DNA of 64,000 nucleotides from a virus. Taxonomy: Duplodnaviria; Caudoviricetes. Both the position numbers and the translations under genes were made by a program. The stretch lies in the IMG/VR virus record IMGVR_UViG_3300032218_002851, positions 1 through 64,000 of that record. One strand, 5' to 3'. This document shows positions 11,068-38,750 of this stretch, piece by piece (position 1 is the first letter of the stretch; each line of letters opens with the position of its first letter). The notes under the pieces are model-generated. The model did not search any database and was not told the origin of the DNA. It saw only the letters and a list, made by a program, of their open reading frames with translations.

Positions 11068-11184
11068 GGCATCAATGTGCTGCTCAGACAAGTTTCTTTC
11101 AAGCAATTTATACTAAGTGATTGATTTTTATAGTTTTTTTCTCAGGACTGAATAAAAAGATAGTCTGATTAAGTTATTGATTTT
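11068..11184. repeat. Fixed-spacing intergenic element, copy 1 of 3
   Basis: ATCAATGTGCTGCT (11071), TTTCAAG, TAAGTGATTGAT, CAGGACTGA (+72), TAAGTTATTGATTT (+99). Confidence 0.85.
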
Positions 11185-11193
11185 GCAGTACTT

Positions 11194-18364: not shown

Positions 18365-18484
18365 GGCAGTATCAATGTGCTGCTCGCCGACATGCTTTTC
18401 AAGCAATTTAAGTTAAGTGATTGATTTTGTTAAATTTTTGTGCAGGACTGAGCCTGTTACAGATATAGATAAGTGATTGATTTT
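18365..18484. repeat. Fixed-spacing intergenic element, copy 2 of 3
   Basis: ATCAATGTGCTGCT (18371), CAGGACTGA (18443, +72), TAAGTGATTGATTT (18470, +99). Confidence 0.85.
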
Positions 18485-18559
18485 GTTTGAATTTCAACCG
18501 GCAAATATCCTATCGTTTAAAGCAAGATTATTTATTTAAATGGGTTTGTGAATAGAATA

Positions 18560-18890
18560 AGTGATGGTTGTATTGAGTAATAAGGAACAACCATCAAGAA
18601 CCCCAATTACAATCAGGCTGCTAAGGCCATCTCGTAATGGTCGTCATTAGATGCGACATTTATATTTTTTGCTTGATTTACGGTCATCGCCTACCGAGTT
18701 GTCCATATCAGTATCTTACCCTGTCGAATCTAGTCACCCCCATCAAAAGCATACTTACGAAACATTTATTGATTGCTGAACCAGTGTGTTTCGACAGCAT
18801 CATATTTACAATATGCTTTTGGTGGAGGTGGGGAGAATCGCACTCCCGTCCAGAATACCTTCCCTTTACTTCATACAACTATAAAACCAT
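18560..18890 (-). ncRNA. ssrA: Circularly permuted (two-piece) tmRNA; tag ASNDDHYEMALAA
   Basis: Minus order: T-arm GGGAG-TGCGATT-CTCCC plus CACCTCCACCA (ends 18820); intervening hairpin; 5' end GGGGGTGACTAGATTCGAC (starts 18741) with G3-U70; tag 18654..18613. Outer limits approximate. Confidence 0.9.
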
Positions 18891-18902
18891 ATTTAGTTAC
18901 TA

Positions 18903-19151
18903 TTACGCATCTATCGGTTTGAAAGTCGTAGAATTAATTCTACAAATAACCTTTTTCATCACAATCTTACCGTGCAAGTGATCGTAAGTATAAAAGTCAT
19001 CAATTATATTTTTAATCGATACAGAAAGATCTGGATTGATTACCGTTACAAAGTGCTGTACTTGCATTTCAGCAACCTTAGGTTCTGCAACCTTCGGAGT
19101 TGCGTAAGTGGGGTGTACCTGCTGAATCGAATATCTCGGATCTATATGCAT
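18903..19151 (-). CDS. Hypothetical protein
   Basis: ORF track. Confidence 0.4.
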   Translation of the reverse strand: MHIDPRYSIQQVHPTYATPKVAEPKVAEMQVQHFVTVINPDLSVSIKNIIDDFYTYDHLHGKIVMKKVICRINSTTFKPIDA

Positions 19152-19350: not shown

Positions 19351-19899
19351 TTATTCCAAGTTAGCGTGCCACTCTCTGAGATTGTCTTCTTCTAATGCAA
19401 GTTTTTCCATAAGATTAAGAATCACAGTTTCAAAGAATATCATAGTAGCAAGTTCAAATCTACTACCAAGAGGAAGATTCTTGTTCGTAGATAAAACTCT
19501 ACTAGATGGACCAATCTGAAAAGTTTTATCAGCCATCTTGCCAAGAGTAGACTCAGGATTTCCAGTGACGAGTAACACTTGAGATTCCTCAGATTTTGCC
19601 TTCTCAGCAAAAGCAATCAACTGCTTGGTTTCACCTGAACCAGAAACAAGAAGAAGTGAATCGCGAATTTCTATAGGTTTGGTAGTAGTTTCTCCAACTA
19701 CTTGAACACTCAAGCCGCAATGCAGCAATCGCATTGCAAACATATTAGCGACCATTTTTGATCTACCTGCGCCTGCCACAAAGATTCGAGGAACCATATA
19801 TGGCGCATAGAGTGCATCGATAAAATCGGTACACATTTCTTTTTCCGTGTAGAGCAGTTCGTCTCTTAGAATATCAAGAACATCAGAGTAATTAGCCAC
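19351..19899 (-). CDS. hxlB: 6-phospho-3-hexuloisomerase (Phi, SIS domain)
   Basis: RIFVAGAGRS, VVGETTT, VSGSGET, PLGSRFE and HANLE motifs; GTG start at 19899 overlaps hps stop. Confidence 0.93.
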   Translation of the reverse strand: MANYSDVLDILRDELLYTEKEMCTDFIDALYAPYMVPRIFVAGAGRSKMVANMFAMRLLHCGLSVQVVGETTTKPIEIRDSLLLVSGSGETKQLIAFAEKAKSEESQVLLVTGNPESTLGKMADKTFQIGPSSRVLSTNKNLPLGSRFELATMIFFETVILNLMEKLALEEDNLREWHANLE

Positions 19900-20530
19900 G
19901 TTCAACAGCTTCCCGAATTTCAGCAGCAGCGCGAACAGGGTCAGCAGCACCATAGATTGCAGCACCTACTACAACGATATCAGCACCAGCATCGATAACT
20001 TGGCGAACGGTATCCTTGTTAATGCCGCCAGCCACTGAGACCATTACTGGTAGGCTTAGACCAACGATTGCCTTGAGGTCCTCGAATGGCGTCTGTCCTC
20101 TCGCCTGAGCATCTAGTCCAGTATGTACGCCGATGATGTGGGCACCTAACTCGGCAACCTGGAAAGCTTTTTCCATCTTATTTGGAACGCTAATCAAGTC
20201 AACCTGTGCCATACCACCTTCTCTAAGCTTTGCTGCTTCAATAACACCAGAGATGGTTCCCACGTCCGCAGCACCAAGTACTGTAACGATATCTGCGCCA
20301 ACTTTAAAGAAAGGCGACGCTTCGTACAATCCGGCGTCCATTGTCTTGAGGTCCGCTAGAACCTTACGTGTAATAGAATACGCTCGTACAGTTTCGACAA
20401 CGCGAATTCCGTTAACCTTAACGCATGGAGTACCGAGTTCGATGATGTCTACATAGGGTGAGATAAGTTGAGCTAGACGAATTGTGTGTTCATAGTCTAG
20501 AGTATCGAGTGCTGCTTGAATTAATGCCAT
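19892..20530 (-). CDS. hxlA: 3-hexulose-6-phosphate synthase (Hps)
   Basis: IQAALD, IIELGTP, ADLKTMDAG.YEA, GVHTGLDAQARGQTPF, VAGGI and VVGAAIYG motifs; methanotroph-like type. Confidence 0.95.
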   Translation of the reverse strand: MALIQAALDTLDYEHTIRLAQLISPYVDIIELGTPCVKVNGIRVVETVRAYSITRKVLADLKTMDAGLYEASPFFKVGADIVTVLGAADVGTISGVIEAAKLREGGMAQVDLISVPNKMEKAFQVAELGAHIIGVHTGLDAQARGQTPFEDLKAIVGLSLPVMVSVAGGINKDTVRQVIDAGADIVVVGAAIYGAADPVRAAAEIREAVERG

Positions 20531-34239: not shown

Positions 34240-34357
34240 GCAGCATCAATGTGCTGCTTGGTAAGCTGCCTTTCAAGTATTTTTCGCTAAGTGTTTGATA
34301 TTGTTAGAAAAAGTGTCAGGACTGAGCCTGACACTTTTGTGTCTAAGTTGTTGATTT
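34240..34357. repeat. Fixed-spacing intergenic element, copy 3 of 3
   Basis: GCAGCATCAATGTGCTGC (ATCAATG at 34245), CAGGACTGA (34317, +72), TAAGTTGTTGATTT (34344, +99). Confidence 0.85.
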
Positions 34358-37547: not shown

Positions 37548-38750
37548 TTACTTGATAGCCTTTAGTAACACGCAGTCTGCACCAATCCGACCATTGAACT
37601 TTTGCGATTTGGTCTTGATGCTGTCCATGAGCTTCTTCAATGTATTTTTATTACCGTCCAGCACCTGTTTGATAACAGCCTCAGGCTTGCGTACCTTTTT
37701 CTTGATGCTGCTGATTTCATCATAGTGGAGGATACTAGAACCCTTGATTGCCAACGTGGCAACGCCCAGATTGCCTGTGATATGATAAATCTGATTGGTC
37801 TTGGTGTTAAACACCCAGAGCTGGGTTGCCCCGATGATAGTCTCAGGAGGAATGCTCTTTATCTTGAGTTTGGCATATTCCTTCATGTAGTTCAGCTTGC
37901 TGATTTGCTTTTCTACACTCACTGGCTTTTTAGCCCGCGGCTTGCGTACCTTGGCTGCCTTGGCATTGCCAACAAAACGGTCAATATCGTCCAACACCGC
38001 CTTCAGCATGCGCAGGATTTCACGCTTGCTGGACAGCGGCAGATACTCATATGCTTCGTTCAACTGTTCATCCTTGAATCCCATCATCTCCTCATGCTCA
38101 GCTAGACGGTCTTCCACCACCTTGCGGATATGCTTGCATACATGAGTTGAAGGCTGGTGCTTCTGCAGATAGTTATAGAAGCTATAGTCAATCTTTTTCT
38201 TTCGGTCTTGAAACCATGAAGAGATTTCATCGTCTACCGCAATGATATGCGGCTCAGCACCGGCTTTGATGCGGTCTTGAATATTGATAACTTCTGCCAT
38301 TGGTTTCAGCGCAACTTTTGCGCCATCGTTATCATCATCAAACACCTCATGACTATCATATACTTCACTCAGAAGCAACGATTCAAGTTCGGAAACAATA
38401 ACGTTTTCACATTCACCAGTGAACTTGGTACCAAGATCCTGCATGCGAATTAGCTTACCCAAGGTGTCTTTTTTAACACTGCTGAGTTTTTTGAAATGTC
38501 GAATATCTGCCTTGTTGTAATTATTTTTACCCATCCAATTGATGACCCATTTTTCATAGGTATCCGAATCAACGCTGGATATTGCATACCAATTCAAGGC
38601 ACTGGCAAGAACAGCATCAGAACGGCTGCTGATTTCTCCCCAAGAAAGACTTTCGTCACCCAGCTTGCCTGCTTCTCCGCGAATTTTTTCACGCTGTTGA
38701 CGAGTGACGCGGATTCGTACTGGGTTTGATGATTTGCGTTTAACTGCCAT
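37548..38750 (-). CDS. Conserved T4-like hypothetical protein
   Basis: ALNWY, DEQLNEAY and LWVFNTKT...GSSI..YDE..S..KK.RKPE pattern. Confidence 0.7.
   Translation of the reverse strand: MAVKRKSSNPVRIRVTRQQREKIRGEAGKLGDESLSWGEISSRSDAVLASALNWYAISSVDSDTYEKWVINWMGKNNYNKADIRHFKKLSSVKKDTLGKLIRMQDLGTKFTGECENVIVSELESLLLSEVYDSHEVFDDDNDGAKVALKPMAEVINIQDRIKAGAEPHIIAVDDEISSWFQDRKKKIDYSFYNYLQKHQPSTHVCKHIRKVVEDRLAEHEEMMGFKDEQLNEAYEYLPLSSKREILRMLKAVLDDIDRFVGNAKAAKVRKPRAKKPVSVEKQISKLNYMKEYAKLKIKSIPPETIIGATQLWVFNTKTNQIYHITGNLGVATLAIKGSSILHYDEISSIKKKVRKPEAVIKQVLDGNKNTLKKLMDSIKTKSQKFNGRIGADCVLLKAIK

Follow-up and report, generated by a model that had tools for sequence, protein, structure and literature searches.

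Two-piece, circularly permuted tmRNAs occur in many cultured phages, and the kind is thus already known. A survey of 18,146 phage genomes (Buchholz et al. 2022; PMC9004378) arrived at 133 distinct tmRNAs, of which 53 were two-piece; tmRNAs marked "Permuted" appear in its Table S1 for phages that infect Stenotrophomonas, Xanthomonas (XacN1), Bordetella, Citrobacter, and Pseudomonas, among others. The OM43 phage Melnitz has a two-piece tmRNA unlike that of its host's lineage (PMC9004378), and a 2025 tmRNA database holds 79 phage sequences (PMC11915505). The permuted form was checked with Rfam in six isolate phages, with these scores against RF01850 (beta_tmRNA) and RF04321 (tmRNA_permuted):

XacN1: RF01850, 107.8 bits; RF04321, 123.2 bits
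Marzo (tmRNA annotated in GenBank): RF01850, 94.6 bits; RF04321, 119 bits
JGB6: RF01850, 94.7 bits; RF04321, 113.9 bits
PHB04: RF01850, below cut-off; RF04321, 104.5 bits
BUCTxx99: RF01850, below cut-off; RF04321, 100.1 bits
Xoo-sp13: RF01850, below cut-off; RF04321, 65.7 bits

Permuted tmRNA genes are unannotated in the GenBank entries of Xanthomonas phages JGB6 (OQ436456.1; L128 1473-1863), Xoo-sp13 (MN047793.1; L127 1477-1820), and XacN1 (AP018399.1; L163 531-950), of Bordetella phage PHB04 (L164 595-836), and of BUCTxx99 (L165 604-806); in JGB6, a hypothetical protein is annotated over the tmRNA gene on the opposite strand. To our knowledge, the host genera of these isolate phages lie outside the lineages reported to have two-piece tmRNAs.

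The gene described here lies in the window, the whole 64,000-nucleotide stretch of DNA that was analyzed (positions 1 to 64,000 of IMG/VR record IMGVR_UViG_3300032218_002851). The original prediction placed a phage-borne, circularly permuted two-piece tmRNA at 18560-18890, and ARAGORN and two Rfam models agree, with the gene on the minus strand. Its implication that such genes are rare does not hold, as two-piece tmRNAs are recorded in many phages (PMC9004378, Table S1) and are confirmed here for XacN1, Marzo, PHB04, BUCTxx99, and JGB6.

Anatomy and neighborhood of the tmRNA gene

ARAGORN calls a permuted tmRNA at 18522-18912(-) with the tag VASNDDHYEMALAA*, and both covariance-model scores are significant, contrary to the refuting outcome named with the original prediction: RF04321 tmRNA_permuted matches 18880-18613(-) with 122.5 bits (cut-off 47, E 2e-23), and RF01850 beta_tmRNA matches 18931-18562(-) with 102.1 bits (cut-off 84, E 6e-30). 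The latter is the best model of tmRNA clan CL00001 for this gene, so that the subtype is betaproteobacterial and not that of the alpha-tmRNA model first suggested, although the score is moderate, at 102 bits versus 160-331 bits for bacterial genes. The parts of the gene are as follows:

18562..18931, minus strand: whole permuted tmRNA gene (leader, acceptor piece, spacer, coding piece), from Rfam RF01850 beta_tmRNA
18820..18880, minus strand: acceptor piece (P2 5' strand, T-arm, acceptor 3' strand, discriminator A, CCA), from the Rfam alignment, ARAGORN, and fold; 5' end approximate
18847-18831, minus strand: T-arm GGGAG-UGCGAUU-CUCCC, read directly and from Rfam/ARAGORN
18830-18824, minus strand: acceptor 3' strand CACCUCC, read directly
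18823 and 18822-18820, minus strand: discriminator A and then the encoded CCA, read directly
18819-18742, minus strand: spacer (intervening segment) of 78 nt, read directly and from the precursor fold
18562..18741, minus strand: coding piece (GGGGGUG, D-loop analogue ACUAG, P2 3' strand, hairpin CGGU..ACCG, tag ORF, 3' hairpin), from the Rfam alignment and ARAGORN; 3' end approximate
18741-18735, minus strand: acceptor 5' strand GGGGGUG with G1 at 18741, read directly
18613..18657, minus strand: tag ORF GUC GCA UCU AAU GAC GAC CAU UAC GAG AUG GCC UUA GCA GCC UGA, encoding (V)ASNDDHYEMALAA*, from ARAGORN
18563..18595, minus strand: 3' hairpin with loop CCUUAUUAC..CAAU, whose loop residues are invariant in the orthologues and JGB6 and match the RF01850 consensus

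The CCA (18822-18820) lies upstream of G1 (18741) on the minus strand, and the window therefore contains a two-piece (circularly permuted) tmRNA gene. Direct reading bears out the predicted gene order, the GGGGGUG 5' end, and the G3-U70 alanine determinant, which is the third pair of a 7-bp acceptor stem (GGGGGUG/CACCUCC). The T-arm consists of 5 bp and a 7-nt loop, UGCGAUU, which is atypical in having G at its second position and departs from the near-universal UUC. Helix P2 joins both pieces through AGUUG/CAACU and UAUUCUG/CAGGGUA, with non-canonical pairs in its middle. The beta-specific terminal 3' hairpin is missing (the match to RF01850 lacks 23 model positions at its 3' end), and this hairpin of the model may be a terminator rather than a functional need of the tmRNA. 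In the precursor fold, the spacer ends form a closing stem of ~12 bp that is stacked on, or extends, the acceptor stem, and the aaaagcata/tatgctttt stem noted at the outset (18745-18753 and 18812-18820) forms when the whole precursor is folded.

Two codons are candidates for the resume codon of the tag ORF, GUC as called by ARAGORN and the following GCA as first proposed. GUC is favored by its position after UAUAAAU, with shorter-tag orthologues having GCC straight after UAUAAAA; GCA is favored by analogy with Escherichia coli tmRNA, which has a GUC|GCA context, and by the usual resume codon being one for alanine. The predicted tag sequence and its ALAA end stand, and both starts are possible: the C-terminal ...YEMALAA is identical with either, the stop codon is UGA, and the tag is 13-14 residues long, compared with the common ANDxxFALAA.

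The parent record, from an uncultured freshwater phage, is linear and 89,857 bp long, with a CheckV completeness of ~25%. Nearly all long ORFs of the window are on the minus strand. The record codes for a ribonucleotide reductase (RNR), a DnaB-type helicase, a primase, and tail and virion proteins, and its helicase shares 47-49% identity with the helicases of jumbo phages PA5oct, Atu_ph07, and Phosso; the record is therefore a piece of a large phage, and the gene is phage-borne as predicted. Its many auxiliary genes include those for PstS, a phosphate porin, CsgG, curlin repeats, UvdE, and a CHASE2 cyclase. The tmRNA locus lies inside the phage genome and not at a prophage/host junction, among genes that are all on one strand, and the arrangement recurs in other viral contigs. 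The tmRNA is the sole tRNA-like gene that ARAGORN finds in the entire record. The features just upstream are:

19351..20530, minus strand: hps-phi operon (hps 19892-20530, phi 19351-19965)
18903..19151, minus strand: 82-codon ORF between phi and the tmRNA, overlapping the Rfam leader region, from the ORF list
18937..18964, minus strand: weak sigma-70-like promoter candidate TTGTGA-16-TAGAAT just upstream of the tmRNA, from a promoter scan

The hps product is a 3-hexulose-6-phosphate synthase (TIGR03128, 226.6 bits, cut-off 200), and the phi product is a 6-phospho-3-hexuloisomerase (TIGR03127, 165 bits, cut-off 160). The 82-codon ORF has no Pfam or PHROG match. Sigma-70-like sites are no more numerous than in the shuffle background, so that the promoter candidate is unenriched, and the T4-type late promoter TATAAATA shows no enrichment across the window. 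A search for an intrinsic terminator of the tmRNA gene found none, and there are no riboswitches at the Rfam threshold anywhere in the window. An SmpB domain is absent both from the record (~25% of the phage genome) and from five orthologous contigs, including one with a completeness of 81%. Relatives sought through the 400-aa protein at 37548-38750 were not found, and searching the isolate phages for Hps gave distant matches only.

A 17-mer, AAGTGATTGATTTTGTT (plus strand), occurs in two exact copies 56 nt apart (18415-18431 and 18471-18487), both located between the tmRNA and the gene that follows it. A degenerate pair with the same 56-nt spacing lies at 11115-11131 and 11171-11187, and another match lies at 34289-34305; the window has six matches versus 0.7 expected, and the 17-mer is possibly a phage regulatory or promoter repeat.

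Orthologues, modules, and covariation

Two independent routes, a search with the neighboring Hps protein and a scan for the invariant P2 motif, lead to six other viral contigs with tmRNA orthologues, mostly just 3' of hps-phi. The Hps route yields six viral contigs, with 74-89% identity to the window's Hps, and five of the six have a beta-type permuted tmRNA shortly downstream of hps-phi, the sixth contig ending earlier. This synteny is seen in L135-L139, with the tmRNA of L136 coming right after phi; the P2-motif route added L143 and L145. The seven aligned genes have a mean column identity of 83% yet are mosaic, with the following types of tRNA domain and tag:

tRNA domain type a (window, L136): T-stem GGGAG/CUCCC, loop UGCGAUU, acceptor GGGGGUG/CACCUCC
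tRNA domain type b (L135, L139, L143): T-stem GCGGG/CCCGC, loop UGCGAAU
tRNA domain type c (L137, L145): T-stem GGCGG/CCGCC, loop GGCAGUG, acceptor GGGCGAG/CUCGUCC
Tag type i (window, L137): (V)ASNDDHYEMALAA
Tag type ii (L135): (V)AANDDLFEGYALAA
Tag type iii (L136, L139, L143, L145): ANDDFYGDYALAA

There are also several spacer types, in varied combinations with the tRNA-domain and tag modules, and the window's spacer is shared by L136, L137, and L143. The tag of L137 is the same as the window's, with two synonymous codon changes only (GCC UUA to GCU CUA). ALAA ends the tag of every orthologue, in all three tag types, and the orthologues other than L137 have YALAA.

Two-sided compensatory changes affect about seven pairs (two in the acceptor stem, three in the T-stem, one in P2, and one in the spacer stem), as read directly from a MAFFT alignment after correction of one gap that affected the acceptor 5' strand in L137 and L145. 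The acceptor stem changes from GGGGGUG/CACCUCC to GGGCGAG/CUCGUCC with G3·U kept, G3·U70 and ACCA being invariant among the orthologues, and the change in P2 is from U-A to C-G. The second T-loop base covaries with the D-loop analogue in 108/108 distinct permuted tmRNA cores: all 96 copies with a UUC T-loop have ..GG, and all 12 with UGC or GGC have ..AG, this rarer state appearing on several separate branches of the tree. The covariation fits a preserved tertiary contact in the tRNA-like elbow, and because the D-loop analogue covaries, the odd T-loop of the window's gene need not be a defect. The spacer ends pair in 99/104 viral copies, with a mean of 9.9 pairs versus 2.1 in shuffles, and a conserved closing stem would be consistent with processing of the precursor.

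The contig of L143 (G775; 154.8 kb, 81% complete) codes for a helicase that is only 28% identical to the window's, and the tmRNA cores are highly similar; the upstream neighbor of the tmRNA in L143 is not Phi. Phages with different backbones therefore share the tmRNA, which fits inter-phage exchange, and the gene seems to move between unrelated phage backbones. Taken on comparative grounds, the tmRNA gene appears to be intact and selectively maintained, and its function is well supported.

Host, origin, and proposed role

The Hps and Phi genes point to a RuMP-cycle C1 user, and judging by these auxiliary genes the phage host is probably a RuMP-cycle methylotroph. Hps proteins 55-62% identical to that of the phage are present in 6 of 400 sampled genomes of the class, at the same level in pmoA-negative methylotrophs and in a pmoA-positive methanotroph, and the gammaproteobacterial methanotroph host proposed at the start is therefore unproven. 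A standard tmRNA (RF00023, 175-234 bits) is present in each of the five Hps-bearing genomes tested (four pmoA-negative and one pmoA-positive), and the permuted model is passed by none of them. Permuted tmRNA was found in none of the 81 genomes of the pmoA-positive genome's family (the methanotroph family) and is absent from 81 of 83 in the family of three pmoA-negative genomes (the methylotroph family; 83 species, genomes of 1.1-3.3 Mb), both labels being set by Hps, pmoA, and genome size only.

The two exceptions in the 83-species family are an artifact over a standard gene and an extra permuted gene on a phage-like contig. The "permuted" matches of G662 (L133 3222-3501) and G665 (C120) overlap ordinary one-piece genes and are not truly permuted; a duplicated 3' fragment just upstream may account for such matches over or near the cut-off and hence for the false calls. 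Genome G650 has a normal one-piece tmRNA on one contig and a second, permuted tmRNA on another (C4, 209 kb; L132 7394-7816), with tag ANDNNFAQAKIAA and a 172-nt spacer, amid genes for a phage-like SNF2/HNH helicase and DHFR; this phage-like stretch may represent a prophage or a large phage that was binned with the genome. C4 was considered as a relative of the window's phage and rejected, since its 793-aa protein is the phage SNF2/HNH helicase and not RNR, and there is no DnaB match.

The likely hosts having one-piece tmRNAs, the two-piece form of the phage is therefore foreign to them as originally proposed, a claim that we infer because the host is itself assigned from auxiliary genes. Beta-type genes are present in two bacterial families, in 12/31 genomes of one (160-331 bits) and 3/31 of the other (160-169 bits), and RF01850 is passed by 3/151 sampled genomes of the order containing genome G001, a tally that includes one genome (G029) with a sub-threshold match only. 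An acceptor-piece signature scan of IMG/VR gives at least 119 contigs, in 107 of which ARAGORN calls a permuted tmRNA, with tags that are mostly ANDxxFALAA; among the matches listed, none closely resembles the window's gene outside the tRNA-like domain. Spacers are 24-42 nt long in bacteria (n = 11), with a viral median of 78 nt (range 21-237) and a length of 56-84 nt in the window's group. In a FastTree tree of spacer-free tmRNA cores (248 columns), two bacterial groups each form a clade (support 0.999 and 0.95), and the window's group forms a clade (0.95) within an all-viral assemblage, outside both bacterial clades; this placement is suggestive only, given the weak deep nodes and the small bacterial sample. 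Genes of the higher-scoring bacterial clade (L147-L154) read CCC or CCT and do not encode the terminal A of CCA; CCA is encoded in the small-genome bacterial clade (L159-L161), the window's group, and isolate phages JGB6 and Xoo-sp13.

In four freshwater metagenome runs, the summed contig depth over both halves of the tRNA-like domain (18651-18732 and 18815-18855) exceeds the depth over the flanks by factors of tens to hundreds, with joints that skip the spacer, and those communities therefore contain many other beta-type permuted tmRNAs with different spacers. A search for RNA runs that cover the stretch found none. Among bacterial genome contigs, a donor scan for the window's T-loop variant gave three matches and no permuted tmRNA: two are ordinary one-piece tmRNAs of Elusimicrobiota MAGs, and the third site has no tmRNA call. 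A contig of a Casimicrobiaceae MAG has a 36-nt match to the tmRNA 3' end (L125 4877-4912) without a surrounding tmRNA call, which may be an integration-site remnant.

We consider it likely that this is an intact, selectively maintained beta-like two-piece tmRNA gene, on a large lytic-type phage of a RuMP methylotroph, whose product is a host-processed rescue RNA. The analysis establishes what the RNA is, that it is complete and conserved, and that its pairs covary; how it is processed, charged, and used with SmpB, that it tags proteins, and what the phage gains are points that we infer throughout. A single precursor would be transcribed from the gene's own weak promoter or through read-through from hps-phi, with the spacer folding into a hairpin that stacks on the acceptor stem. 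Cleavage 5' of G1 (GGGGGUG) would fall to host RNase P and trimming to the encoded CCA to host 3'-processing enzymes, releasing acceptor and coding pieces that would stay paired through the acceptor stem and helix P2. Host AlaRS could then charge the RNA with alanine through G3·U70, and SmpB, assumed to be the host's because no phage SmpB was found, would with host EF-Tu bring it to stalled ribosomes. Translation would resume on the tag ORF and append (V)ASNDDHYEMALAA, with the ALAA end directing products to ClpXP-type proteolysis. The phage would thereby gain extra ribosome-rescue capacity during destruction of host mRNA, together with recycling of truncated proteins.

A broader proposal, and a tentative one, is that the beta-like two-piece tmRNAs are a phage-borne radiation of their own, with long structured spacers, encoded CCA, and interchangeable tRNA-domain, spacer, and tag modules, which crosses unrelated backbones, works in one-piece hosts, and takes the form of an hps-phi-tmRNA cassette in methylotroph phages. 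If so, tag variants would reflect tuning by phages, for instance to match host adaptors or to counter RNA-cleaving defenses, and not inheritance from hosts. The apparent use of the two-piece form in one-piece cells implies that the SmpB, AlaRS, and RNase P of the host, like the ribosome, can work with both architectures.

It is unlikely that the architecture is not foreign at all, the host being a betaproteobacterium with its own two-piece tmRNA from which the gene was acquired. Such an origin would suit the beta subtype, the occurrence of beta-type bacteria in two sampled families, the encoding of CCA in one small-genome bacterial group as in the phage copies, and the great abundance of beta-type tmRNA domains in the freshwater metagenomes that contain the phage. 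However, Hps is absent from the three beta-type tmRNA bacteria tested, and the phage carries hps and phi; all five Hps genomes have one-piece tmRNAs, in families free of the permuted form in 81/81 and 81/83; the phage group falls in an all-viral assemblage, with a spacer of 78 versus 24-42 nt; and the T-loop variant occurs in no permuted tmRNA among the bacterial genomes scanned.

We regard as improbable a role as a competitor or re-targeting RNA that sequesters host SmpB, EF-Tu, or AlaRS or swaps the host tag for a longer one. In its favor, the mycobacteriophage DS6A tmRNA-like RNA inhibits endogenous tmRNA when produced in E. coli (as cited in PMC11915505), the window's tag is longer than and unlike ANDxxFALAA, the T-loop and D-loop are deviant, and tag modules are swapped among orthologues. 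The DS6A RNA lacks a tag ORF, however, and the window's RNA has one; no orthologue has lost the tag ORF, stop codon, or ALAA, in keeping with tagging for ordinary proteolysis, and the compensated T-loop/D-loop change points to a working elbow. Although tmRNA genes are common integration sites, of which phages often carry 3' fragments (PMC9004378), and metagenome assemblies break within this gene, a non-functional passenger (an integration-site remnant, or host DNA that entered the contig by capture or faulty assembly) is scarcely credible, given that both pieces and the tag ORF are complete, that covariation maintains the structure, that the same gene is in the same place in independent contigs of other samples, and that the context is not of an integrase type but consists of one-strand replication and auxiliary genes.

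Comparison with known tmRNAs

With a host-processed rescue RNA as the favored reading, the window's tmRNA adds a freshwater methylotroph phage to the phages with such genes, together with comparative evidence for selection on them; phage tmRNAs show that certain large phages devote genes to keeping the ribosomes of their hosts at work. The find refines rather than changes this picture, because the class is documented in cultured phages.

The mycobacteriophage Bxz1-group one-piece tmRNAs and the ORF-less DS6A RNA are phage-encoded members of the tmRNA family like the window's, but the Bxz1-group genes are standard and unpermuted and the DS6A RNA has no tag ORF, whereas the window's gene is permuted and has one. 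Melnitz and the pelagimyophages also have two-piece tmRNAs (PMC9004378); Melnitz infects a methylotroph and departs from its host lineage in its tmRNA, as the window's phage probably does, and both have a CsgG curli module, but the Melnitz tmRNA is reported as alphaproteobacterial-like and controlled by a glutamine riboswitch (PMC9004378), whereas the window's is beta-like with no riboswitch at threshold.

Bacterial beta-type tmRNAs (RF01850; Sharkady & Williams 2004, cited in PMC9004378) agree with the window's gene in gene order, tRNA-like domain, and P2. The two also have in common the post-P2 hairpin, the position of the tag ORF, the CCUUxUUAC..CAAU loop, and an NDxx..ALAA-type tag. The window's gene differs in score (102 versus 160-331 bits), in spacer length (78 versus 24-42 nt), in lacking the terminal hairpin, in its UGCGAUU T-loop with a compensating D-loop change, and in a tag of 13-14 versus 10 residues.

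The isolate phages (XacN1, JGB6, and Xoo-sp13 of Xanthomonas, Marzo and BUCTxx99 of Stenotrophomonas, and PHB04 of Bordetella) resemble the window's phage in having a permuted tmRNA and large genomes. Those spacers that were parsed are also long (86 nt in JGB6 and 147 nt in Xoo-sp13), and some isolates have long tags starting V-A/T-A-N-D, as in JGB6 (VTANDSYFEVALAA) and Marzo (VAANDDSYTVRIAA). Alignment with the window's gene is limited to the tRNA-like domain, at ~80-88% identity, and the isolates have other backbones, hosts, and habitats (soil or wastewater versus freshwater); the Marzo tmRNA is within a tRNA cluster, whereas the window's follows hps-phi. This case contributes a freshwater group of methylotroph phages in which the tmRNA is arranged with hps-phi, together with mosaicism of the modules, covariation at the tertiary level, and the long spacers of the phage copies.
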